A DNA stretch of 64,000 bases. Source: an uncultured Acidobacteriota bacterium (GTDB lineage: Bacteria; Acidobacteriota; B3-B38; Guanabaribacteriales; CAZYAF01). Location: positions 98,681 to 162,680 of the forward strand of contig CAZYAF010000005.1 of the NCBI GenBank assembly GCA_964645975.1, read 5' to 3'. The first letter of the stretch is position 1. Each line of letters opens with the position of its first letter. Under the pieces are notes generated by a model. That model made no database searches. It was not told the origin of the DNA and saw nothing but the letters and a program-made list of their open reading frames with translations. The position numbers were made by a program, and so were the translations under genes. Shown here piece by piece: positions 1 to 12,370 of this stretch.

Positions 1-218
1 CTTTGGATCGCAAATACCATGCCAGTAAAAGTAGCGGTAATCAATACAACCGGTAAAGATTTGATACCAATTTCCTCCATTTGAGTAAATATGAGCCTCA
101 GGCTGAAGGGTGGTCGGAAAATCCATATTACAGTGTCTTTGAATAAAAGAACAATTTCCCCTACCTCCGATAAGAAATTTTTTAACTTTTTGATAATAAT
201 CTCGAAGATTTCTTTCAT
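1..218 (-). CDS. mlaE: MlaE family ABC transporter permease (5' part; runs off window start)
   Basis: Manual translation from ATG at 218: MKEIFEIIIKK...IFRPPFSLRLIFTQMEEIGIKSLPVVLITATFTGMVFAIQ, matching the MlaE 'QM..IG..SLPVV.IT..FTGMV.A.Q' motif. Confidence 0.85.
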   Translation of the reverse strand, partial: MKEIFEIIIKKLKNFLSEVGEIVLLFKDTVIWIFRPPFSLRLIFTQMEEIGIKSLPVVLITATFTGMVFAIQ

Positions 219-243
219 TTTGATATGGTGCTCACAGAGTTTA

Positions 244-1602
244 TTACAATTCTTCAGTTTCTATGTATTCGCTTTTTGCTAAATCGAAAAAGCGGGTATA
301 TTTCTTCTGAAATGCCAGTTTAATTGTGCCCGTAGGTCCATTTCTATGTTTTGAAATGATAAATTCCGCCAATCCTTCATTTTCAGGGGTGGAATTATAT
401 TCCTCTTCTCTGTAGATGAAACAAACCAAATCTGCATCTTGTTCAATAGCTCCTGATTCGCGCAGGTCAGAAAGCTGTGGTCTACGGTCTGCTCTTACTT
501 CGGGAGCCCGACTAAGCTGGGAAAGTGCAATTAAGGGTATATTAAGCTCCTTTGCTAAGCCTTTTAAAGCTCTGGATATGGCTGAAATTTCCTGGTTGCG
601 ATTTTCAAATCTTTGTGGCATGGTCATAAGCTGCATATAATCAACGATAAGTAGACCTAATCCATATTCCTGTTTTAGCTTCCTGGCTTTGGCTCGCATT
701 TCAACTACGGATATACCAGGCATGTCATCAACGAATATTTTTGCATCCGAAAGTACGCCCATTGCCTCATATAATTTATGCCATTCTGCATCTTTTAAAA
801 AGCCGGAGCGCAGCTTTCGGCTGTCCACTTCTGCTCTGGAGCACAGCATTCTAATTACTAACTGCTCTTTGGACATCTCTAAGCTGAAGACGCCAACGGT
901 TTCATCAGTCTTAAGCCCAACATGTTGGGCAATATTGAGGCTGAGGCTGGTTTTGCCCATAGCAGGACGCGATGCTATTACTATATAATCGCCTGGTTGA
1001 AGCCCGCCGGTAAGTTCATTAAATTCAATAAAAGGTGTGGGAAGACCAGTTATTAATTCCTTCTGCTCATAAAGTTTATCAATATTTTTAATGGTGTCTT
1101 TTGCAATCTCTTTGAAACTAATGAATCCTCCAGTAACTTTTTCCTCAGCAATGGCAAAAATAGAACGCTCAGCATCGTTAATTATGACATCTGTATCTTC
1201 ATCTTGAGTATAGCATCGGGATATTACTTCATTGGAAGCAAAAATAAGCTGTCGAAGAACAGATTTTTCTTTTACAATACGAACATAATACTCAATATTT
1301 GTAGTTTTAGGAACGCCATCTATTAAAGATGCTAAATAAGCTGTGCCACCAATAGATTCCAAATATCCGCTCTTCTTGAGTTCTTCGCTTAAGGTCAAAG
1401 GGTCAATAGCTTTTGATTGCTCCCAAAGGGCTTCCATTTTTGCATATATTTTTCTATGGGTTTCTCGATAAAAATCATTTTCTTGCAGCATCTCGGCTGC
1501 TTCGTTGAAGGCTTTATTTTCTACTAAAATGGCTCCAAGCACCGATCGTTCTGCCTCAATGCTGTGAGGCACCACTTTTTCTAAGGTAATGTCATCTTTC
1601 AT
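244..1602 (-). CDS. dnaB: Replicative DNA helicase
   Basis: PHSIEAE N-terminus, Walker A SRPAMGKT, IVDYMQL, LSQLSR, DLRESGAIEQDAD, KHRNGPTG. Confidence 0.98.
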   Translation of the reverse strand: MKDDITLEKVVPHSIEAERSVLGAILVENKAFNEAAEMLQENDFYRETHRKIYAKMEALWEQSKAIDPLTLSEELKKSGYLESIGGTAYLASLIDGVPKTTNIEYYVRIVKEKSVLRQLIFASNEVISRCYTQDEDTDVIINDAERSIFAIAEEKVTGGFISFKEIAKDTIKNIDKLYEQKELITGLPTPFIEFNELTGGLQPGDYIVIASRPAMGKTSLSLNIAQHVGLKTDETVGVFSLEMSKEQLVIRMLCSRAEVDSRKLRSGFLKDAEWHKLYEAMGVLSDAKIFVDDMPGISVVEMRAKARKLKQEYGLGLLIVDYMQLMTMPQRFENRNQEISAISRALKGLAKELNIPLIALSQLSRAPEVRADRRPQLSDLRESGAIEQDADLVCFIYREEEYNSTPENEGLAEFIISKHRNGPTGTIKLAFQKKYTRFFDLAKSEYIETEEL

Positions 1603-1710
1603 GATAATATATTTTAATTCATATTTTAGTAATTTCAGTTACTTAATTAAATATTTAATTATTTGGCTAACTTTAATGCTTTTTTCTTTCGTGCGCCGTT
1701 AATAAATCCA

Positions 1711-1932
1711 TTAATTTTTGATTCTTCCTGTCCCTGATAATTCACCCAGCAATCTATCTGCCTCAGAAAGTAAAAGTACAAAATTTCCATTATAATTAAT
1801 AACAGGGGGTAATGAATTGGGCACAAAAGCCCAGTAACCTCGAGATGTTTTTTTACATTTTCCGGCTGTGGAATTCTCAACATCTTTTGGACTCAATATT
1901 TCTTGCCTTATCTTATTTACCTTTGATAACAA
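1711..1932 (-). pseudogene. Truncated Fic-family protein, N-terminal (Fic_N) fragment only
   Basis: GYWAFVPNSLPP...LLSEADRLLGELSG resembles the N-terminus of Fic/DOC proteins; stop after ~60 aa; no HPFxxGNGR motif downstream. Confidence 0.65.
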
Positions 1933-2184
1933 GTACTATTATTGCTGAACATCACGGCAAGTGGAATGAATATAATTCTTATTAACGGATATACCCAAAT
2001 CCGTAAATAGAATATTATTCATTTCTACCACTATTTCATAGCTTTTTGCTTTGTAAATTGTTAATTTATATAACTATCCCTAAGTAATACTCAATAATAA
2101 TCTTCATTATATAAAATAACTCTTCTTAAATTAGTAAAATTATACACTATATTTTGGGGTTACGCAAAGGAGATAATGCTAAGA

Positions 2185-2625
2185 TTATTCTCTAATAACT
2201 ACGAGGCTTATCTGAGTACTAACCTCGGGATGGAGTTTTATACTAACCTGATATTCACCTAATTTTTTGATTGATTCTAAAATTAATATCTTTCTTTTAT
2301 CTATTGAGAAGCCCTCTTTCTCCAGCAATTCTGCTATATCTGCAGTCGTCACTGAACCAAAAAGGATTTCCTCACCTGCTTTTTTACTTACGGTAACTGT
2401 TATGTTATTTAATTTTTCTGCTATTTTTTCGGCATGTATTTTTTCTTTTTCTTCTTTATTCTTCTGTAATTCTTCCTCCTGTTCAAAGCGCTTAATGTTA
2501 GCTGGAGTAGCTAAGATAGCTAATTTTTTCGGCAAAAGATAATTGCGTGCATATCCATCAGTCACATTCACAATACTTCCTCTCTCTCCCAGTCGTCCTA
2601 CTTTCTGGTTGAGTATTACTTTCAT
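2185..2625 (-). CDS. rplI: 50S ribosomal protein L9
   Basis: MKVIL...LG..G..V.V.DGYARNYLLP; LFGSVT. Confidence 0.98.
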   Translation of the reverse strand: MKVILNQKVGRLGERGSIVNVTDGYARNYLLPKKLAILATPANIKRFEQEEELQKNKEEKEKIHAEKIAEKLNNITVTVSKKAGEEILFGSVTTADIAELLEKEGFSIDKRKILILESIKKLGEYQVSIKLHPEVSTQISLVVIRE

Positions 2626-2847
2626 AATTAATCCTCCCTTTATCGATTCGCTTTAACAGTAATTTATAATATAATTTCGCCTGCTTTCCAGAAAAAATTA
2701 ACGGGCTTAATAGTTATAAAAGAAGGGCGGTATCTATAAAGCAAAAATTATTTTCACAACTCTATCAATATATTGTTATTGAGCCTTAACTACCGAGAAC
2801 CATTAAGCGAGTACCGTAAAAACTGCAACAGAATTTAAATTATAGGT

Positions 2848-3111
2848 TTAATCTGTGGTGTAAGGAAGAAGAGCAATATGTCTTGCACGCTTTATAGCTT
2901 TAGACAGCATTCTTTGATGTTTGCTGCAAACGCCTGATATTCTTTTAGGTAATATTTTGCCTCGCTCAGGAATATAGGGTAAAAGAATTTGCACGTTTTT
3001 ATAATCAATATAATTTATGTTGTTTTCACAAAATTTACAAAATTTTCTCCGCCTAAAGACATACCGCCTTCGTTCTCGATCTAATTTGCTACTTCTATTT
3101 CTATAAGCCAT
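2848..3111 (-). CDS. rpsR: 30S ribosomal protein S18
   Basis: [37 protein letters not shown]. Confidence 0.98.
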
Positions 3112-3123
3112 AGCATCTCTCCT

Positions 3124-3462
3124 TTAAGAAGCCTCAGTGGCTGGTTGTTCCTCTTGCTTATCAATCCTGATATTTTTTAAATCCAGCTTAACAGTAAGAT
3201 ACCGTATTATATTCTCACTAATCTTGAGTTTCCGTTCAAATCTCTGCACTATTCCTGGAGGGCCTTGATAAATAAAATGGACATAGAGGCCTTCTGTAAA
3301 TTTTTTCACTGAAAAGGCTAATTTTCTCATACCCCAATTATCAACTTTTTCAATGGTTCCCTTTTCATTAGTAATGTAGTTCTTAAGCTCCTCTAAAATC
3401 TTTACTCTTTCTTCATCGCTTGTAGTGGGAGCAATAATCAATAGAGTTTCATAGACTTTCAT
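3124..3462 (-). CDS. rpsF: 30S ribosomal protein S6
   Basis: YETLLI, WGMRKLAF, G.Y, IIRYL; upstream of rpsR. Confidence 0.97.
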   Translation of the reverse strand: MKVYETLLIIAPTTSDEERVKILEELKNYITNEKGTIEKVDNWGMRKLAFSVKKFTEGLYVHFIYQGPPGIVQRFERKLKISENIIRYLTVKLDLKNIRIDKQEEQPATEAS

Positions 3463-3467
3463 AAATA

Positions 3468-3512
3468 TTCCTCCTTATGGATAAAAGCCCTATTTTAAAA
3501 GAGCAAGGAGTT
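3468..3512 (-). promoter_or_regulatory. Putative S6:S18 ribosomal protein leader RNA (autogenous control)
   Basis: Minus strand aaCTCCTTgctc-ttttaaaata-gggc-ttttatcc-atAAGGAGgaat before the rpsF ATG: outer stem CTCCTT/AAGGAG sequesters the SD, inner gctc/gggc hairpin and CC bulge, as in the known S6:S18 motif. Confidence 0.7.
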
Positions 3513-3558
3513 ATTCCCCACAATTTTTGTCATTACATTATAACATATGTTCGCTTTA

Positions 3559-5526
3559 TTAAAATAAGGAAATAAGTATTAGAGAAAGCAAGGGAATAAA
3601 TTTAATCACTATACTCATCGAAGGTCCAGCTACTTCTTGTAATGGATTACCAATCAATCTTCCTACTAAATAAGCATTATAAAGAGATTCATCTTCCTTT
3701 TTGGGGGCTATCTTATCAATATAGAAGATGGTATTTTCCCAGGTAATACCTCCGTAACTCAGGAAAAAGGCTAATAATATTCCGGTAAAGATAACTCCTG
3801 CTAAAAATCCAGCTAATCCCTGCTGCAGACCAAATAATGGAGTGAAGCAAATTGGTGATCCAATAATAAGGAGTGCAGGAAGAATTACTTGTTTTAAAGA
3901 AGAAGAATGTGCTGATTTAATAAGATTTTTTAGAAAGGAGTCTTCTTCTCCTTGATTTTTCTCATCGGACGACTTCAACATTTTCATTCTATTTTCTAAT
4001 CCCTGCGTCACATTAACAACAGCAATGATGGCTAAGGAAGCTACTAAAAACGGAATAATAGCACCTGCAAAAGACCCAATGACTACTTCTACTCTGGTTA
4101 TGTCTATCAATTTAATCATTGCCAAATTTTTAAAGGCTCCAAAAAGCGTGTAGCCTGTTAATGCTGCAACGGTAATGGATAATCCCTTTCCAAAAGCGAT
4201 AGCAATATGACTGCTCGCTTTTAAATCTTTCCCAATAGAATTTTTACTCTTAATTTTTAATGTGTGTAACATATTGAGGCTTACCTGCCCTGCAGAGCCC
4301 CAGGCATTCATGGCTGAAGCCATTAGCAAAAAGGAACTTAAGGTAATTGCGCTCAAAGAAGTCCCGTAAAAACCATGAATACGATAGCTCAGGTAAATCG
4401 CTGCACTGATCAGCAATACTGGAAAAGCGGTGCTTTTCATCGCCGATGCAAGTCCAGTTATTATATTAGTGGCTGCTCCGGTTTTACTGGCTTCAGCTAT
4501 TCCCTTTACGGATTTTCCTATTGTGTAATATTTTGATATGAGCATAATAGCAAAACCAGTAATTACCCCAATAAGAATAGACCAAAAACACGTAAAGGGA
4601 AGTTCGAACTCTATTATCAGGTAATAAGAAATAACCATTAATAATATAAAAGCTATTATTGGTAATGCTAAATTATCTGGTTTCCACTTTTTTCTTGTGA
4701 TAATTTTCACTAAATAAGCTGCTATGAAAAATGAAATAAAACCTGCTGCCAGAATAAATAAAGGGAGAAGCAGCCAATTATTCCCATATCCCTGTTGAAA
4801 AATACTGAGTACTAAAGCAGCAGTTGTTGACGCAATAAGAGAATCGAAGAAGTCTGCCTCACGAGAACCGATTCCATTGAGGTGATATTTTAGATTAGTA
4901 AGGTAATTAAGCGCTTGAAGAAATTTACTATCCTTTTTTGTTTGTTCTTTATTAATTAATGCAATTTCACTTTCAGCTACTTCGCCCATGATACCTGCTG
5001 TTATCCTTTCGAAAAGAGCAAAAAAGCATACTCCTAATGCAAAGCTTATAATATGATATATATCGATTATTTCTTTCTGTAAGAGATAATAAGCACCAAA
5101 TAATACTAATAGTGTCACACTTGAAATTCGTAAAGCTGAAAGCATTCCACTTTTAAATAGTATCGCCGTGCTATTAGTCTCATCATTATTTACATAAAGA
5201 GCATGAGCTGCTTTTTCGCCTGAAAACAAAGAGGAATTTATACTCAATAGATTAATAAAAAGAGAAACAAGGGTCCCTACAAAAAATGCTATTCCATTTT
5301 TGAAATCCCATTGCCAGGTAATGAGCAGTGCTAAAATAATTGTAAAAACAAGCTCTAAAATATACTGCTTTTTTTGATAAGCTCTGGTTCCGTGGTTTAT
5401 TGACTTACTCAAAGCTTTAATGCTCTCATCCGTAGATTTGCTGCTTTTTATCAAAAAATAAAAAATAATCCCATTTATTATGGCTATCAGCGCTAATACT
5501 GGTAGGCTAAGAATTATTCCGTTCAT
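3559..5526 (-). CDS. Membrane pyrophosphatase (HppA-family) homologue, catalytic residues degenerate
   Basis: Many TM segments; KYYT, [45 protein letters not shown] are collinear with H+/Na+-PPases, but the [26 protein letters not shown] and [10 protein letters not shown] motifs are replaced; ATGA overlap with pth. Confidence 0.85.
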   Translation of the reverse strand: [655 protein letters not shown]

Positions 5527-6119
5527 TTTTCCTCCACTTGCAAATTATTATAGTTTTTTCGATTAAATATAGTCATAGCTTTGTTAGTTCCTTCAGTTAA
5601 TATTGTAATAATAGCTTTTGTTGCTCGATCTAAAATTTTTTCGACCAGAAGTAATTCTTCATCGGAGAAAGTTTGAAGTACATAATCAGTTAATGAAATA
5701 TCTAAAGTTTCTTCTGGACCTATTCCTAAACGTATTCTGATAAAATTACTGTCTTGTAAATTATTAATAATTGAAATGAGACCTTTATGTCCTGCTGGCC
5801 GCCCTCCTTTTTTTATTCGTAAGCTTCCTAATGGAATATCAACATCATCATGCAAGATGATTAAATCTTCTACGGAAGCTTGGTAATCGCTCAATACTTG
5901 TTTGATGGCAATACCGCTATTATTCATATAGGTTTGAGGCTTTACGAAAAGCACAGGAATATCGTTAATCTTGCTCTTCAGGTATAAATAAAAATGCTCC
6001 TCTTGCTCAATCTTTTGATTGATAGTGGAAGCTAAATAATCAAGTGCTAAGAAACCAAAATTATGTCGGCTCCATGCAAATCTTAATCCTGGATTCCCTA
6101 AACCAGCTAATATCCTCAA
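5523..6119 (-). CDS. pth: Peptidyl-tRNA hydrolase
   Basis: GLGNPG, RHNFGF, KPQTYMNNSG, HDDVD, GHKGL, RIRLGIG; TTG start. Confidence 0.97.
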   Translation of the reverse strand: MRILAGLGNPGLRFAWSRHNFGFLALDYLASTINQKIEQEEHFYLYLKSKINDIPVLFVKPQTYMNNSGIAIKQVLSDYQASVEDLIILHDDVDIPLGSLRIKKGGRPAGHKGLISIINNLQDSNFIRIRLGIGPEETLDISLTDYVLQTFSDEELLLVEKILDRATKAIITILTEGTNKAMTIFNRKNYNNLQVEEK

Positions 6120-6247
6120 TTGGAAAAATTTTTTCTTATATTAAAATGATAAAAAATGATATTTCACTACTTCTAATGGAAAATTTGATTTAGTGAGCTT
6201 AAGGAGATTGTGTTAAAGAAGCAGAAATGATGGCATCAAGCCACTTA

Positions 6248-6949
6248 TCAATCATTTTTATCTTGAGCTTCTTCCTTTTGCTCCCGCTCTTTCTCCACTT
6301 TTTTTTCTGCTTCCTTCTCTCCTTCTTTAACTTCTTCTTCTTCTTCTTCAATCTCTTCAGGTACTGCTTCCTCTACTACTTCTACTTTAGTTGGAGGTAC
6401 CACATTTGCAACTAACTGCTCTGGGTCACTAAGTACTTTAACATCTGCAGGTATTGTCAAGTCTTTTACTCGTAATATATCATGAATACCCAATTGCGAT
6501 ACATCTACTTTAATGAGCTCAGGAATTTTATCAGGAAGACATTCTATTTCAATTTCCCGGGTAGCGAAATTAAGGATTCCACCGAAGTCTTTTACTCCAG
6601 GAGCTTCTCCAATCGTAACAAGCCTCACAGAGGTTTTAATAGCAATATCTGCTGAGGTGAAGTAAAAATCAACATGCAAAAGAGTCTGTTTTACCGGCTC
6701 TAATTGAATGTCTTTTATCAAGGCAAGTCTGGGCTTTCCTTTATTGTCAATTTTTAATTTGATCATGCTGCTTTCTCTTTCAGTAGACCGTAATATTTCG
6801 CTCATTTCCTTCGTTTTTATCACGATAGGTAAGGCTTTTTCTTTTGGGCCATAGGCTACAGCTGGTATCAAGCCTTCTCGTCGTAAACGGGACGCTGACC
6901 CTTTACCTGTATTCTCTCTTGTCGTTGCATTTAAGATGTTTTCTTTCAT
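6248..6949 (-). CDS. rplY: 50S ribosomal protein L25 / general stress protein Ctc
   Basis: R...GKG.ASRLRREG.IPAV.YG, HVDF, acidic C-terminal tail; likely start ATG 6949 (ORF extends to 6976). Confidence 0.95.
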   Translation of the reverse strand: MKENILNATTRENTGKGSASRLRREGLIPAVAYGPKEKALPIVIKTKEMSEILRSTERESSMIKLKIDNKGKPRLALIKDIQLEPVKQTLLHVDFYFTSADIAIKTSVRLVTIGEAPGVKDFGGILNFATREIEIECLPDKIPELIKVDVSQLGIHDILRVKDLTIPADVKVLSDPEQLVANVVPPTKVEVVEEAVPEEIEEEEEEVKEGEKEAEKKVEKEREQKEEAQDKND

Positions 6950-6977
6950 AATGCTTACCTTTTGGTAAAATATCACA

Positions 6978-7919
6978 TTAGATAAATAAAGAACTTACAG
7001 AAGATTCTTCGTGAATTCTTTTTATTGCTTCTCCTAACAATTGTGCTACAGAAAGCTGGATAATTTTCTCTGATTTTTTTGCTTCTTCGGATAATGGTAT
7101 TGTATTAGTAACTAAAACCTTTTTTAAGCACGATTTTTCAATACGACTTATAGCTGGACCGGATAAAATTGGATGGCTTCCGCTTGCATAGACTTCTTTT
7201 GCACCATTATTAATTAATGCTTCGGCAGAATTAACCAGCGTTCCTGCTGTATCTATCATATCATCTATAATAAAAGCTGGCTTTCCTTTTACATCACCTA
7301 TCACATTCATTACCTCGGAGACATTTGCTTCCTCCCTTCTTTTATCAATAATAGCAAGGGAAGCTCTTAGACGCTTACCGAAAGCTCTTGCTCGTTCTAC
7401 TCCGCCTGCATCAGGTGAGACTAAGACTAAACCGCTTAATTTCATTTTAGTGATATAATCAATAAAAACTGGAGCAGCAAAAAGATGATCCACAGGGACA
7501 TCGAAGAAGCCTTGAATTTGGGGGGCATGGAGATCCATGGTTAACACCCTATCCGCTCGAGCGGCTGATATTAAATCTGCAACCAGCTTTGCGCTTATGG
7601 GCACTCGTGGCTTATGCTTTCTGTCCTGGCGAGCATATCCATAATAAGGCATTACAGCTGTAATTCTACGCGCGGAAGCTCTTTTAAAAGCGTCTATCAT
7701 GATGAGAAGCTCCATCAAATTAACATTCACTGGGGGACATGTGGGCTGTATTATGAACACGTCTTTTCCCCGAACATTTTCTAAAATTTGACAAAAAATC
7801 TCTCCATCGCTAAATTTGCAGAGCTTTATTTGCCCTAAAGTGAGCTTCAGATAATCACAAATACCTTCAGCTAAATCTCTATTTGCACTGCCCGTGAATA
7901 TAGCTATTTCGTTATGCAC
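6978..7919 (-). CDS. prs: Ribose-phosphate pyrophosphokinase
   Basis: [44 protein letters not shown]; likely GTG start at 7919 after GGAGG. Confidence 0.98.
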
Positions 7920-8007
7920 GCATCCTCCCACATTCTATATTAAATATTAATCTATCTCATCGGAGCTACTTCCTAAAGAAGCAATAGCAACAAATCCTAA
8001 AAATAGC

Positions 8008-8082
8008 TGGCTGGGGCGGGAGGATTCGAACCTCCGAATACGGGATCCAAAATCCCGTGTCTTACCGCTTGACGACGCCCCA
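8008..8082 (-). tRNA. tRNA-Gln(UUG)
   Basis: tggggcg...cggga-tt-TTG-ga-tcccg...ggttcgaatcc...cgccccagCCA; usual position between ispE and prs. Confidence 0.97.
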
Positions 8083-8173
8083 TTTTAAAAATAATTAATG
8101 TGTAAATAGATTTAAGTAATTTATTTTTTGCAAAAACTGAAATTATAATTGCAGCCAATTTTACGATTATCTT

Positions 8174-8461
8174 TTAAGATAGTTCTTCAGAGGTTTGCAT
8201 CTCCTCAGAAATTATATTTTCATATTTAATGAGAATAACATCCTCCATCGCCTTACGAGTTTCGCTGTTCAAAGGATGAGCTATGTCTCTAAATGTGCCA
8301 TCTTTCCTTTTTTTGCTCGGCATGGAGATGAACAATCCTTTATTGCCGTTTATTATTTTTATATCACTGATTATAAAGCAATTATCCAATACAATAGAGA
8401 CAAATGCTTTTAGTTTCTCATCATCTTTAACCGGGAATACTCTTACTTCTGTAATTTCCAT
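8174..8461 (-). CDS. spoVG: SpoVG family DNA/RNA-binding regulator
   Basis: MEITEVRV, LKAFVSI..D..F.I.DIKII.G..GLFISMPS.K..DG.FRDIAHP. Confidence 0.95.
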   Translation of the reverse strand: MEITEVRVFPVKDDEKLKAFVSIVLDNCFIISDIKIINGNKGLFISMPSKKRKDGTFRDIAHPLNSETRKAMEDVILIKYENIISEEMQTSEELS

Positions 8462-8563
8462 TTGCTATTGCGCTCCCCTCTTAATAAAGTTGTTAAGGTG
8501 AATGGATAGTTTAGAACTAATGAAAAAAAACAAAAAAGCTTACAATTCCCCCCTTTCTAAAAC

Positions 8564-9463
8564 TTATTTAAATATTAACTTTTTATATGCATTGGAGCTA
8601 ATAGTTTTGCTGCTAAACACATTATAGCCTTCATCTTTAAAATGGAAATATGCTTTTTCTGCAGAAACCTTATTATCAAAAATAGCAAAGACAGCTGGTC
8701 CGCTTCCTGACATTGAGCAAAACCTGCTGCCTATTTTTTCCATCTGAGTTTTTATTTCTGCAATCAAAGGTGCTTCTTCTATTACATCTTCAAAGTCGTT
8801 TCTTAATCCCTTGTCTACTTCCCCCTTGTAAAAGGCAAATTTCCTTAAAATAGTATTACTATTTCGTTTTTTTGTCAACTTTAAATTCCATTTTTTATAA
8901 GCATTTGCACTATTTATATGAATCAAGGGGCATGCTATTATTATATATTTCTCATTAATTTCCTTTAAAGCAAAGAGCTCATCTCCTCTACCAAGTCCTA
9001 ACGCCGTTCCCCCTAAAATAAAGAAAGGAACATCAGAACCGATTGCTGATGCCATAGTAATAAGGGACCTATCATCAAGTTTTAGATTCCATAATTTATT
9101 GAGTCCAAGTAAAACCGAAGCTGCATTACTACTTCCACCACCTAAACCAGCGGCTATTGGAATATTCTTTTCGATTCTTATATGAAGACCTTTTTTAATA
9201 CCGCTGAAAGACTTAATTTTTTGGGCCGCTTTAAATGCTAAATTATTTTCATTTAACGGCATATCTGGGTGCTTACTCTCAATTTCAATGCCCCTGGTTA
9301 TTTCCCTTATATAAATAGCGTCATGTAGGTCTATAGTTTGAAATATGGTTCGTAATTCATGATACTCATCTGAACGTATGCCTACAATCTCTAACCCTAC
9401 ATTTACTTTTGCATAAGAATTAATTCTTATTGATGAATATGTTATGACCTTTTCCCGTGGCAT
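8564..9463 (-). CDS. ispE: 4-diphosphocytidyl-2-C-methyl-D-erythritol kinase
   Basis: AKVN.GL, YHEL.T.FQ, KNIP.AAGLGGGSSNAA, GSDVPFF, MSGSG. Confidence 0.97.
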   Translation of the reverse strand: MPREKVITYSSIRINSYAKVNVGLEIVGIRSDEYHELRTIFQTIDLHDAIYIREITRGIEIESKHPDMPLNENNLAFKAAQKIKSFSGIKKGLHIRIEKNIPIAAGLGGGSSNAASVLLGLNKLWNLKLDDRSLITMASAIGSDVPFFILGGTALGLGRGDELFALKEINEKYIIIACPLIHINSANAYKKWNLKLTKKRNSNTILRKFAFYKGEVDKGLRNDFEDVIEEAPLIAEIKTQMEKIGSRFCSMSGSGPAVFAIFDNKVSAEKAYFHFKDEGYNVFSSKTISSNAYKKLIFK

Positions 9464-9481
9464 TATGGTATCTTTGTGTCT

Positions 9482-10339
9482 TTAAGATAATCTTTTAAGC
9501 AAAATGGCAGCTTGTCCTCTTAATGATTCTAAATTAGTCTCCCTGGCATCATGCCTGGGATAAAATTGGAAAGATTCTGCCTTTAACTCCTTCACATTAA
9601 ACTCAATATCTTTTGCTTTCAAAATAAGTTCAATGTCCTCCTTCGGTACTTTTAAGCTGATTTCTCTGGGAAATATAGTTTCTTCTTCAATTCTATAATC
9701 AGAATAATGAGCTCTTAAAATTTCTTGCTGGTTAGTAAGATCGAAAATACGTGTAATAAGGATGCTTTCGACCTTAGGATTAACATAATAGTGAATTTCT
9801 CTATTCAACTCTTTTTGTTGCTGTTTAATTATTATCAAATCATGTTTGCTATCCCATTTAATAGTTTCTTCCTGAGTATCAGTGGAATATAAATACTGAT
9901 TTAGTAAAATATCATTGAGATCTTGAGCTTCAATACGCAAGCCTAAAAGCTTAAAAAAATTCTCGGATGTAGGAGATGCTGTATAATACTGCTTTTCCTT
10001 TAGCAGATAAAAATTTACCTGCTTGTTATTTGAAACCATGAGCGCCTGGGCCACACCAAATGAGCTGGAAAACTCCATCCTAATAAGATTGGGATACTTA
10101 ATAAGAGCTAACTGTTTTAATGTGTACCATTTATTTGATACTTTCATCTTCAGCTTATAGCGTGCAGCAAAGGTAGATATTGTCGGTTTCTTTTCTTCAA
10201 GCTGTGAGATATAAAGCTCTGGATTTCTTTTTGCCAGTTCCCAAACCTCAGGATTAATCTCTGGTGGCAACTTGGAAGCAGCACAAGCAAGTATTAACAT
10301 AGTGAACAGGGTAGAAAAGATTAGCTTAATTTTTTTCAT
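9482..10339 (-). CDS. Lipoprotein, LolA/LolB-like fold (DUF4292-like)
   Basis: Lipobox ILAC; P..IRME....FG pattern and C-terminal Y.DY.....FP..I; occupies the lolB position between a TPR gene and ispE. Confidence 0.6.
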   Translation of the reverse strand: MKKIKLIFSTLFTMLILACAASKLPPEINPEVWELAKRNPELYISQLEEKKPTISTFAARYKLKMKVSNKWYTLKQLALIKYPNLIRMEFSSSFGVAQALMVSNNKQVNFYLLKEKQYYTASPTSENFFKLLGLRIEAQDLNDILLNQYLYSTDTQEETIKWDSKHDLIIIKQQQKELNREIHYYVNPKVESILITRIFDLTNQQEILRAHYSDYRIEEETIFPREISLKVPKEDIELILKAKDIEFNVKELKAESFQFYPRHDARETNLESLRGQAAILLKRLS

Positions 10340-10381
10340 CTTATCCTTTCATAGTTCGATTTTATGTATACTTCTTCTAAG

Positions 10382-12370
10382 CTACTGCTGAATCTTTTGT
10401 GCATTTTCTATTTTTTTCCTAATGAGCTGTTCATTTTCCGGCTTCAGGCCAAGAGCATCTTGCCAATGCTTTATAGCTTCGGATAACTCACCTAAGCGAT
10501 AATAGAGGTCACCAAGATGGTTACGGATCTCGGCTGATCTTGGTTCTTTTTTTGCGGCTAATTCCAAGTATTTTTTTGCATCATTGAGCTTATCGAGCTG
10601 ATAATAAGCCCAGCCAAGACTATCAAGGTATGAACCATTCGTGCTGTCAATCTCCAAAGCCCTTTTTATATAATCTATAGCCTCTATTAGCCTTATCCCC
10701 TTTTCTGCTAACATATAGCCTAAATAGTTAAGAGCTTTATCATGATCCGGATTCTTATTTATTATTTTTTCGAAAACTTCTTCTGCTAAGTCTGATCTAC
10801 CTGTTTTTTCATAGGTTGTACCTAAAGTGAAAGTAAGATCTTCATGTTCGGGAAAAACCTTCAGTGCTGCGAAAAGGGACTCCTCTGCTTTGGAATATTC
10901 CTTTGCATCCATATATATGGTGGCTATACCTAAATAGATTTGCGGAGTAGCATTTCCTTTCTCAATAATCTTGTTTAGTAGTGTTATTCCTTCTTCTATT
11001 TGGCTTCTATCTGCTAAAATCTCGCTCTTTATCATATGTAAGGTGTAATTATGCGGCTCCCGGGCAATTGCCTCATCGCATTTTCTTAAAGCTTCCTCGC
11101 TCTGGCCGGATTCATGGAGACTCATTATTAAAAGGTTGTTGAAATTGGCTGCTAATTGAGGGCTCAATTTTTCAGCACGACGAAGGTTTTCCGCTGCTTT
11201 ATGATATTCCCCTCTTTGAAAATGAATCCAACCTTTGTTTGCCAGAATTATGGAATGTTCTTCATTTCTTACAGCACTCTTCTTCTTATTTATTTCTTCA
11301 ACCAGGATATTATATGTCTCTATGGCCTTTTCATAATCTCGGCTCTCCCCATATACTTTTGCCAGATTATAGCGTGCAACAATATCTTCGGGATGTTTCT
11401 CTAAATGATGTAAAAAGATTTTTTCTGCTTGAGTATATTTTTTTAGTTTTTGATAGGTAAGGGCTAAATAATTCAAGGTTGTAGAATCATCGGGCTTTGC
11501 TTTTTGAACCTTTTTGAATTCAGCTTCAGCTTCCCGCCATTGCGAATTTTCGAAATAAGCCAATCCAAGCTGAGCGCTTATCTCAAGGTCGTTAGGTTTA
11601 AGCTGGAGGTACTGATTGTAAAGTTCTATTATTTTATTATAGTTTTTGAGATATCGATAAACACCTGCCATCAGGTTTATTGCATTGGAATCTGTGGGGT
11701 GCATTTCCTTGAGCTTATTTAGATACTCTAAGGCATCACTAAATTTCCCGAGATTAATATAGTTACGGGCGATGAATTGAAGACCCGCCGGGGAGTGTGG
11801 ATCATATTGTAAATGAAGAAAGAGGTAATCCAAAGATCGTTGATATTCTTTTTTAAAATTATACAATTTGCCCAGGGTTAGATAACTTTGCTCATCATCT
11901 TTTTCCAGGGTTACTACCTGTTCCAGTTCACTTATTGCCTGGTCCGCATAGTGCTCGTCAAAATTGCTGCTTATAAACAGGTGGAAATAAACATTCCCCA
12001 AAAGCCTGTGTGCGGTAGCATTATCTGCATCTATCCCAATGGCCTTTTTACAGTATTCGATGGCTTTTTCATCTTCTCCATTATAATAATAAGCTGAGGC
12101 AATAGCTGTATTAATGTCTGGTTGCTGTGGATCGTGTTCCAATGCCTTCAGATACTCCTTCACTGCCTCCTGATACTTTCCTTGAACTTCAAGGATATGC
12201 CCCAGGGAGAAGTGAAAATACTGTTCCGCCTTATTATTAACTGCAGTCGTAAAAGGCTTTTCATCACTATTGTAAACCTGAACTGCAACGTGAGTACTAG
12301 CAGTAAAGGAATACAACATGAAAAATACGGATAAAGCTAACCAGGATTTTTTAATTTTTTTGATTATCAT
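10382..12370 (-). CDS. Exported tetratricopeptide repeat protein
   Basis: Signal peptide; many TPRs; C-terminal ALNYLGYMLA...YLDSLGWAYY...HLGD, typical of the TPR gene upstream of lolB/ispE. Confidence 0.9.
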   Translation of the reverse strand: MIIKKIKKSWLALSVFFMLYSFTASTHVAVQVYNSDEKPFTTAVNNKAEQYFHFSLGHILEVQGKYQEAVKEYLKALEHDPQQPDINTAIASAYYYNGEDEKAIEYCKKAIGIDADNATAHRLLGNVYFHLFISSNFDEHYADQAISELEQVVTLEKDDEQSYLTLGKLYNFKKEYQRSLDYLFLHLQYDPHSPAGLQFIARNYINLGKFSDALEYLNKLKEMHPTDSNAINLMAGVYRYLKNYNKIIELYNQYLQLKPNDLEISAQLGLAYFENSQWREAEAEFKKVQKAKPDDSTTLNYLALTYQKLKKYTQAEKIFLHHLEKHPEDIVARYNLAKVYGESRDYEKAIETYNILVEEINKKKSAVRNEEHSIILANKGWIHFQRGEYHKAAENLRRAEKLSPQLAANFNNLLIMSLHESGQSEEALRKCDEAIAREPHNYTLHMIKSEILADRSQIEEGITLLNKIIEKGNATPQIYLGIATIYMDAKEYSKAEESLFAALKVFPEHEDLTFTLGTTYEKTGRSDLAEEVFEKIINKNPDHDKALNYLGYMLAEKGIRLIEAIDYIKRALEIDSTNGSYLDSLGWAYYQLDKLNDAKKYLELAAKKEPRSAEIRNHLGDLYYRLGELSEAIKHWQDALGLKPENEQLIRKKIENAQKIQQ

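Follow-up and report, generated by a model that had tools for sequence, protein, structure and literature searches.

Within the 64,000-nt stretch of DNA analysed here (the window; uncultured Acidobacteriota bacterium, GCA_964645975.1, contig CAZYAF010000005.1, positions 98,681-162,680 of the forward strand), a gene lying between pth and rpsF encodes a homologue of the membrane pyrophosphatases (M-PPases), here named P0001, in which the hydrolytic centre of the family is almost entirely substituted. P0001 is best regarded as a membrane protein that has the complete M-PPase fold but no catalytic function, maintained as a pseudoenzyme; the probability of this reading is put at about 0.78. The evidence consists of homology, residue loss, synteny and sequence conservation, together with purifying selection in relatives and the presence of a canonical paralogue.

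ORF listing and translation showed the open reading frame (ORF) to be uninterrupted, to start with ATG and to code for 655 residues on the minus strand (3559-5526). Direct reading of the sequence showed the TGA of pth and the ATG of P0001 to share an ATGA (5523-5526), with a GGAGG located a few bases upstream of the ATG. A first-pass annotation of this DNA had described just such an intact ORF, coupled to pth by the ATGA and lying ahead of rpsF; the description was borne out, the strand being the minus strand. An assembly artefact is ruled out for this ORF, since contig pieces at least 99% identical are present in sequencing runs of two other studies (X5 and X6). In addition, a strain detected in a marsh metagenome (X7, ∼95% identical) shows no insertions or deletions across positions 3100-6200.

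Fold and hydrolytic centre

P0001 matches the PF03030 family (H_PPase) with an E value of 3e-88 and 297.5 bits (cut-off 29.7), and a phmmer search against the PDB matched it to the Vigna H+-PPase (best E 1.2e-41). Twelve M-PPase equivalog models of NCBIfam also match the protein, although none of the twelve reaches its cut-off (best model NF001960, 332.5 vs 546). An AlphaFold2 model built from a 52-row alignment (mean pLDDT 87.3, pTM 0.90) contains 17 long helices according to DSSP, 16 of which were read as the transmembrane (TM) set. Foldseek aligned this model to most of the listed TmPPase, VrPPase and PaPPase chains with TMq values of 0.87-0.91. By sequence and by model, P0001 is a homologue within the M-PPase superfamily with a predicted 16-helix, two-ring fold.

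The state of the active site was scored at 18 hydrolytic-centre and funnel positions, taking as reference the canonical enzyme of the same genome (P0124; see below) and reading the substitutions from a HMMER alignment to the Vigna radiata enzyme and from two independent MAFFT alignments. A set of 45 canonical sequences showed no variation at most of these positions, and very little at R175, N457 and K659. P0001 keeps two of the 18 (K193 and K447), and has Glu in place of Asp at three more. At the level of whole motifs, DNVGDNVGD reads TNLKYHLNG, GNTT reads SHIA and GGAWDNAKK reads GITWENTIF; DAYGPI.DNAGG is replaced by a 12-residue stretch, and a 22-residue and a 10-residue motif are each replaced by a different sequence of the same length. 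All of the first-pass annotation's catalytic substitutions were reproduced by HMMER and both MAFFT alignments, and a proper alignment did not restore the catalytic Asp residues.

The changes run through all six former motif regions, all encoded on the minus strand. In the former substrate-binding motif of TM5 (23 residues, 172-194; positions 4945-5013), R174 is kept, while K5.58, D5.61 and D5.65 have become E182, E185 and A189. In the TM6 segment that held the DNVGDNVGD motif and part of the gate (residues 200-230; 4837-4929), T210, Y214 and G218 stand in place of D6.35, D6.39 and D6.43, with the gate residues D225, D228 and S229 being kept. The former DAYGPI.DNAGG motif of TM11 (16 residues, 407-422; 4261-4308) has N407 for D11.50 and Q414 for D11.57, and the former GNTTAA.GKG motif of TM12 (residues 434-451; 4174-4227) has H440 in place of the GNTT Asn but still contains K447. 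For the GGAWDNAKK motif of TM15 (14 residues, 591-604; 3715-3756), D15.61 is replaced by E597, K15.64 by I600 and the next Lys by F601. Finally, the TM16 segment with the former 10-residue motif and the gate Lys (residues 616-642; 3601-3681) has R623, N627, Q630 and E631 where canonical enzymes have D16.31, D16.35, K16.38 and D16.39; the gate residue K642 is kept.

As described in PMC6882861, the Mg-PPi cage (PPi, pyrophosphate) is made up of D5.61, D5.65, D6.35, D6.39, D6.43, D11.57 and D15.61, and further of D16.31, D16.35, D16.39, K5.58, K15.64 and K16.38, with the Asp pair D6.43/D16.39 activating the nucleophilic water. This pair is G218/E631 in P0001 and G227/E640 in P0004. As judged from the alignments, P0001 lacks the Mg-PPi site of the family and should be unable to bind Mg-PPi or to activate the nucleophilic water, and so would neither hydrolyse PPi nor pump ions at its expense.

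TmPPase, the K+-dependent, Na+-translocating enzyme of Thermotoga maritima (PDB 4AV3, 5LZQ and 8B21), serves as a measure of what has been kept and what has gone. Both proteins belong to PF03030, NF001960 being the best NCBIfam model of P0001, and both would have the 16-helix, two-ring fold (TMq about 0.9 for the P0001 model). The Na+-type gate position 6.53 is acidic in both (D228 in P0001), to which D6.50, S6.54 and K16.50 can be added; the modelled dimer interface of P0001 likewise falls on TM10, TM13 and TM15, and a GNTTAA-type (K+-dependent) ancestry is seen in the canonical pth-rpsF copies of the phylum. In contrast to TmPPase, P0001 has a hydrolytic centre with only two of 18 residues identical, an equivalog score of 332.5 against the 546 needed, and a TM11 that is nearly unrecognisable (9% identity to the consensus). 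Its sequence gives no reason to expect PPi hydrolysis or PPi-driven pumping.

Paralogue, relatives and origin of the gene

The first-pass annotation had suggested looking for a second, canonical hppA in the genome, and one is present on contig C27 of the same assembly. The protein it encodes, P0124, has 673 residues, scores 900 bits against PF03030 and has all catalytic motifs intact. It is 24-26% identical to P0001 and belongs to another subfamily clade; in a quick tree, copies of the P0124 type form a clade apart from the canonical pth-rpsF copies of the phylum (100% SH-aLRT). Orthologues 66-68% identical to P0124 were found in G001, G003 and G004, three of the other genomes of the class. 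Neither a family I (PF00719) nor a family II (PF02833) soluble PPase was found in the window's genome, which is 96% complete, and the membrane enzyme P0124 may be its only PPase. The gene for P0124 adjoins one coding for a PF03618 kinase/pyrophosphorylase of the pyruvate-phosphate-dikinase regulatory protein family; the pair occupies 607-1440 and 1483-3504 of C27, on the minus strand.

A word-indexed search of 5.8 billion proteins returned three close relatives of P0001, 95, 78 and 55% identical, with the same substituted motifs; the next matches, at most 29% identical, were canonical M-PPases. The public names of dead relatives do not reflect these substitutions. P0122 and P0123 (genomes G003 and G004) are named 'sodium/proton-translocating pyrophosphatase' of Candidatus Aminicenantes or Acidobacteriota bacteria at NCBI, and P0002 and P0003 are entered at JGI as 'K(+)-stimulated pyrophosphate-energized sodium pump'. 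Such names overstate what the sequences would be capable of.

In the genome collection, the class and the order of the window consist of the same five species genomes, which fall into three families. All four genomes in which the pth locus is assembled (the window's own, G000, plus G002, G003 and G004) have a dead, uninterrupted copy between pth and rpsF; the fifth, G001, is 80% complete, yields no match to pth and is uninformative about the slot. These in-slot genes span 564-655 codons over the three families, and the three dead lineages differ in length (655, 624-629 and 564 residues). The copies of the other families are 27-28% identical to P0001 and more eroded (128-259 bits against PF03030), a degree of divergence that indicates the loss to be old. 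The replacements at the 18 positions, compared with a view to one loss or several in the class, are inconsistent among the three lineages. The copy in G004 (contig C10, 844-2538, minus strand; 564 residues), which keeps the gate as R/E/E/K, has lost the greater part of its cytoplasmic loop sequence, both from TM5 to TM6 and around TM11-12.

The ratio of nonsynonymous to synonymous substitution rates (dN/dS) for the dead gene was 0.31 between G002 and G003, two members of one genus (g2) other than the window's (NG86; bootstrap 0.24-0.40, with a maximum of 0.49 in 300 resamples). When stop-to-stop frames were compared, the values were 0.33 (NG86) and 0.49 (YN00). For pth, rpsF, rpsR and rplY the NG86 values lay between 0.13 and 0.23, and for the canonical hppA, compared in a different pair (G001 and G003), the value was 0.15. 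The marsh strain X7 offers a nearer comparison. Among the differences from the window across 3100-6200, 40 of 148 were examined; 24 fall in codons 6-159 of the P0001 ORF (14 synonymous, 10 nonsynonymous) and 16 in pth (seven synonymous, nine nonsynonymous). Scans of genome contigs and metagenome contigs with the clade alignment, P0003 and P0123 as queries found no DNA of the close relatives. A dN/dS of 0.31, which is not near 1, and dead but uninterrupted copies at four of four loci agree with the first-pass suggestions of a maintained pseudoenzyme and of orthologues with pth/rpsF synteny, and speak against recent decay. On this sequence evidence, the dead gene of the class has been kept under purifying selection over a long time and is not a recent pseudogene.

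The neighbours of P0001, named by their Pfam matches, form a same-strand run in the order ispE-like GHMP kinase, spoVG, tRNA, prs, rplY, pth, P0001, rpsF, rpsR, rplI and dnaB, all on the minus strand. Immediately upstream of P0001 and in the same orientation lies pth (peptidyl-tRNA hydrolase, 5523-6119; PF01195, E 6.6e-56), preceded by rplY/ctc (ribosomal protein L25/TL5, 6248-6976; PF01386 and PF14693) and prs (ribose-phosphate pyrophosphokinase, 6978-7931; PF13793 and PF14572). Downstream, beyond a spacer of 96 bases with an AAGGAGG ahead of the next gene, come rpsF (ribosomal protein S6, 3124-3462; PF01250), rpsR (ribosomal protein S18, 2848-3111; PF01084), rplI (ribosomal protein L9, 2185-2625; PF01281 and PF03948) and dnaB (replicative helicase, 244-1602; PF00772 and PF03796). 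P0001 itself (3559-5526) was assigned from PF03030, the AlphaFold2 model and Foldseek, and the ATGA from the sequence and the ORF coordinates. The tRNA gene between spoVG and prs (8011-8082, minus strand; RF00005, 63.5 bits) was the sole Rfam match in positions 1-12000 of the window, where no leader RNA was found. Promoter-like sites (24, with 28.6 expected) and terminator-like sites (5, with 5.0 expected) gave no signal. The run X8, labelled metatranscriptomic and obtained from the same sample as the DNA run X5, contains 100%-identical contigs at 3723-3909, 5136-5316 and 5393-5543, and also rpsF. It is flagged as probably DNA, and therefore carries no information on the expression of P0001.

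Ion pumps are not usually encoded within a translation-gene cluster. Six dead proteins were combined into a profile for a search of 401 genomes of the phylum, and the 26 best-scoring loci outside the class were examined. At 21 of them hppA is flanked by both pth and rpsF, at one by rpsF only, and at four by neither; the catalytic motifs are intact at all 26. The arrangement rplY-pth-hppA-rpsF-rpsR with a canonical hppA was thus seen at 21 of the 26 (among L017-L042), in nine families; we are not aware of an earlier description of it. These canonical copies occupy the same slot as P0001, and most of them share with it the TGxATNII motif of TM10. Both they and P0124 have the fold and the gate residues in common with P0001, but keep the catalytic residues in every motif and score 795-900 bits against PF03030, compared with 297.5 for P0001. 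Among the matches listed, the dead-clade profile scored 383-436 bits with canonical pth-rpsF copies and 285-312 bits with the second canonical copies of the class, and the TGxATNII motif, found in the dead copies and in most canonical pth-rpsF copies, is absent from those second copies. Five genomes with split profile matches (G011, G012, G015, G059 and G086) were considered as possible carriers of half-decayed copies, but proved to have ordinary long-type canonical hppA genes (828-899 bits); other dead copies may be present among 332 further matches of the profile in the phylum.

Because of its position between pth and rpsF, the profile scores and the TGxATNII motif, P0001 is most likely the positional descendant of a canonical, probably Na+-type, pth-rpsF hppA that decayed in situ. 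The argument does not come from the tree. In the quick tree the dead lineages have branches 6-10 changes per site long and no resolved placement, and an approximately unbiased (AU) test does not reject their grouping with the second canonical copies of the class (p 0.59); the tree is uninformative about the descent.

Gate, dimer interface and possible roles

The four gate positions of the family, R5.50, D6.50, E6.53(57) and K16.50, correspond in P0001 to R174, D225, D228 (Asp for Glu) and K642, with S229 adjoining. All five residues are invariant across the four close relatives. The segment formed by an 8-residue motif and MKST, which the first-pass annotation had listed as a retained GAATNII/MKST structural element, was also confirmed by alignment. 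In every dead lineage, conservation is highest in the 18-residue segment that opens TM10 (residues 349-366; 4429-4482, minus strand); it is common to the canonical pth-rpsF copies of the phylum and lies within the modelled dimer interface. Of the helices, TM10 and TM15 are the most conserved between the three dead lineages (35 and 18% identical), and TM11 is erased (4-9%).

In solved M-PPases, as described in PMC10897367 and PMC6882861, the dimer interface is made of helices 10, 13 and 15. A heterodimer of full-length P0001 with residues 349-673 of P0124 was modelled. It scored 0.82, the best of three controls scoring 0.00; 58 of 80 solved complexes attain the pass mark used, as do two of 110 mismatched pairs. 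At least 96% of contacts were the same between runs, the partner had a pLDDT of at least 77, and the modelled contacts involve the TM9-10 linker with TM10, the end of TM12 with TM13, TM15, and the start of TM16. The pairing with an active paralogue proposed in the first-pass annotation therefore passes its controls (0.82 vs 0.00), but the pass may reflect a memory of solved M-PPase homodimers, that is, likeness to them and not binding.

P0001 matches the canonical consensus at 58% of the 74 modelled interface positions and at 27% of positions elsewhere (Fisher p 1.8e-7), a difference that has to be read with the knowledge that the interface list is not independent, that the model may favour conserved sequence, and that positions within a helix are not independent of each other. 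With the TM10 motif left out, the values are 52% vs 27% (p 2e-4). Corresponding figures are 53 and 26% for P0004, and 41 and 25% for the G004 copy (p 0.005). Four canonical control sequences showed no interface enrichment.

We infer dimerisation, ion binding and a physiological role for P0001 along the following lines. In the class, the second hppA, of another subfamily, would do the PPi work, and the copy within the operon would have lost its Mg-PPi cage. Selection in the lineage of the window would keep the reading frame, the fold, a near-canonical TM10/13/15 interface and a cation gate in the middle of the membrane. P0001 would dimerise through the canonical interface, either with itself or with the active paralogue. 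Within this dimer it would bind cations but not hydrolyse PPi, and would modulate ion flow or its partner's activity. This role, as distinct from the pseudoenzyme state itself, is proposed tentatively and at less than even odds.

Several observations weigh against the reading of P0001 as a maintained pseudoenzyme with this role. The gate that the first-pass annotation had reported as kept holds for the clade of the window and for the G004 family, where it reads R/E/E/K, but not for g2, where it reads Y/G/A/I. The interface enrichment of the g2 copies is insignificant as well (36% vs 28%, p 0.17). Since g2 is constrained in spite of this, gate and canonical interface cannot fully explain the retention. 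The dN/dS pair comes from that same genus, which has a more degenerate copy than the window. Further, no canonical hppA was found in G002 (93% complete), so that its co-occurrence with the dead gene is incomplete. The clade of the window (four members) shows no new constraint at the old active-site motifs, 53% of whose positions are invariant compared with 47% elsewhere (p 0.20, no difference). Lastly, the interface of P0001 is 32% identical to that of its own paralogue P0124, as against 58% to the general consensus, and a retained self-interface therefore fits at least as well as a heterodimer.

This last comparison is what would be expected if P0001 formed a homodimeric, PPi-independent cation conduit or sensor that used the kept Na+/H+ gate and had nothing to do with the active paralogue. 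The invariance of R174, D225, D228, S229 and K642 in the clade of the window and the R/E/E/K of G004 point the same way, as does the recurrence of gate retention without catalysis, the R-D/E-D/E-K pattern being present in 12 of 23 strongly degenerate clusters (see below). The g2 lineage, under purifying selection after losing all four gate residues, argues against it; moreover, an open leak would be costly, making it necessary to propose some other gating, and no solved or assayed PPi-independent M-PPase channel was found in the literature searched. Such a conduit or sensor is possible, though somewhat unlikely. Less probable again is an asymmetric heterodimer occurring in nature, with P0001 as a partner, obligate or regulatory, of the active enzyme encoded by hppA. 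One subunit would hydrolyse PPi, while the other, without hydrolysis, would carry the gate and the canonical TM10/13/15 interface. The S-adenosylmethionine decarboxylase (AdoMetDC) prozyme of Trypanosoma brucei, a dead paralogue that stands beside an active one in a dimeric enzyme family (PMC5201418), offers a template for such a pairing; its family, fold and compartment are unrelated to those of P0001, and the analogy would be one of mechanism alone. Partnership with the active enzyme would fit models of unequal subunit roles, namely half-of-the-sites (PMC10897367) and Mechanism III, in which coupling involves 'different subunits' (PMC9408878).

The gene might also be a functionless relic whose frame stays open only because polar effects on the essential rpsF-rpsR-rplI-dnaB genes and toxic misfolding of the membrane protein are selected against, the sequence otherwise drifting. 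Stem branches of 6-10 changes per site, compared with a median end branch of 0.2, would suit such drift, and so would an identity between families of 27-28% where neighbouring genes have 40-74%, the differences among the three lineages in length (655, 624-629 and 564 residues) and in surviving features, and a dN/dS of 0.31 that exceeds the 0.13-0.23 of the neighbours and the canonical copy. That same ratio, on the other hand, is well below 1, with none of the 300 bootstraps above 0.49. A clean deletion would end both costs, yet a full-length gene is present at four of four loci in three families; the conservation is patterned, TM10, TM15 and the interface being kept and TM11 erased; and the 96-base spacer, with its own ribosome-binding site before rpsF, leaves no translational coupling to protect. 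A relic is accordingly considered quite improbable. A rebuilt active site, making P0001 an enzyme or pump for, e.g. another phosphoanhydride or with different metal chemistry, seems very improbable indeed. In its favour, the substituted motifs of the window clade do not differ in conservation from the remaining sequence (the 53% and 47% given above), the TM16 region is 74% invariant, and four acidic residues (E182, E185, E597 and E631) occupy former catalytic positions. Set against this are the two identical positions out of 18, the Gly and Glu that now form the nucleophile-activating pair, the loss of all three Asp residues of DNVGDNVGD and of both Lys residues of AKK, and the want of a common replacement pattern in the three dead lineages, which argues against one new active site.

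Degenerate relatives and significance

When the dead-clade profile was run with HMMER against 1.84 billion cluster representatives, 8497 matches had E ≤0.001. The best 150 of these comprise the representative of the window clade and 149 others (P0126-P0274), and 146 of them are full-length. All 18 catalytic positions are kept in 81 of the 146, 15-17 in 21, 10-14 in 21, and nine or fewer in 23; these counts are rough, given that the profile favours degenerate proteins and that one large MAFFT alignment was used. Of the 23 strongly degenerate clusters, two belong to the class of the window, and 12 keep the R-D/E-D/E-K gate. In a plain search with P0001, 113 of 116 full-length matches keep all 18 positions. 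Judging by these sequences, M-PPases seem to have lost their catalytic residues, wholly or in part, on many occasions. Two of the proteins examined, P0128 (967 residues) and P0146 (957 residues), are M-PPases that score at canonical level against PF03030 and have an N-terminal extension of ∼300 residues with PDZ domains (PF13180, PF17820 and PF00595).

No literature that pairs membrane pyrophosphatases with the terms pseudoenzyme or catalytically dead was found in a search that covered neither subscription papers nor supplements; a 2024 review makes no mention of 'inactive' or 'paralog', and the literature on Aminicenantes and pyrophosphatase contained nothing on the P0001 protein. The pseudoenzyme concept and the M-PPase family are both known, but the dead state is not described for M-PPases in the literature searched.

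Research on M-PPases treats them as the simplest primary ion pumps and, in protists, as drug targets. Debate continues over how coupling works in these enzymes and over the part played by communication between subunits (PMC9408878 and PMC10897367). A natural subunit with the fold, the gate and the dimer interface, but without the hydrolytic centre, would serve directly as a tool in this debate, and would be evidence for a PPi-independent use of the M-PPase scaffold. Should the asymmetric heterodimer exist, nature would have carried out the experiment that the models in those two papers call for, and hydrolysis and ion handling would be divisible between subunits.

There are also consequences for annotation. 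Since NCBI names dead relatives 'sodium/proton-translocating pyrophosphatase', reconstructions of metabolism in these sediment bacteria would include a PPi-driven pump that does not exist. With regard to evolution, the path of P0001 is unusually clear, and offers a clean case of an enzyme turning into a non-enzyme in place, inside an operon of ribosomal-protein genes that is itself conserved, once another copy was available. The retention of a dead but intact copy suggests that the M-PPase scaffold has a second job beyond the splitting of PPi. If dead M-PPases with intact gates are what they appear to be, they would make up an unrecognised class of PPi-independent membrane proteins, repeatedly derived from pumps.

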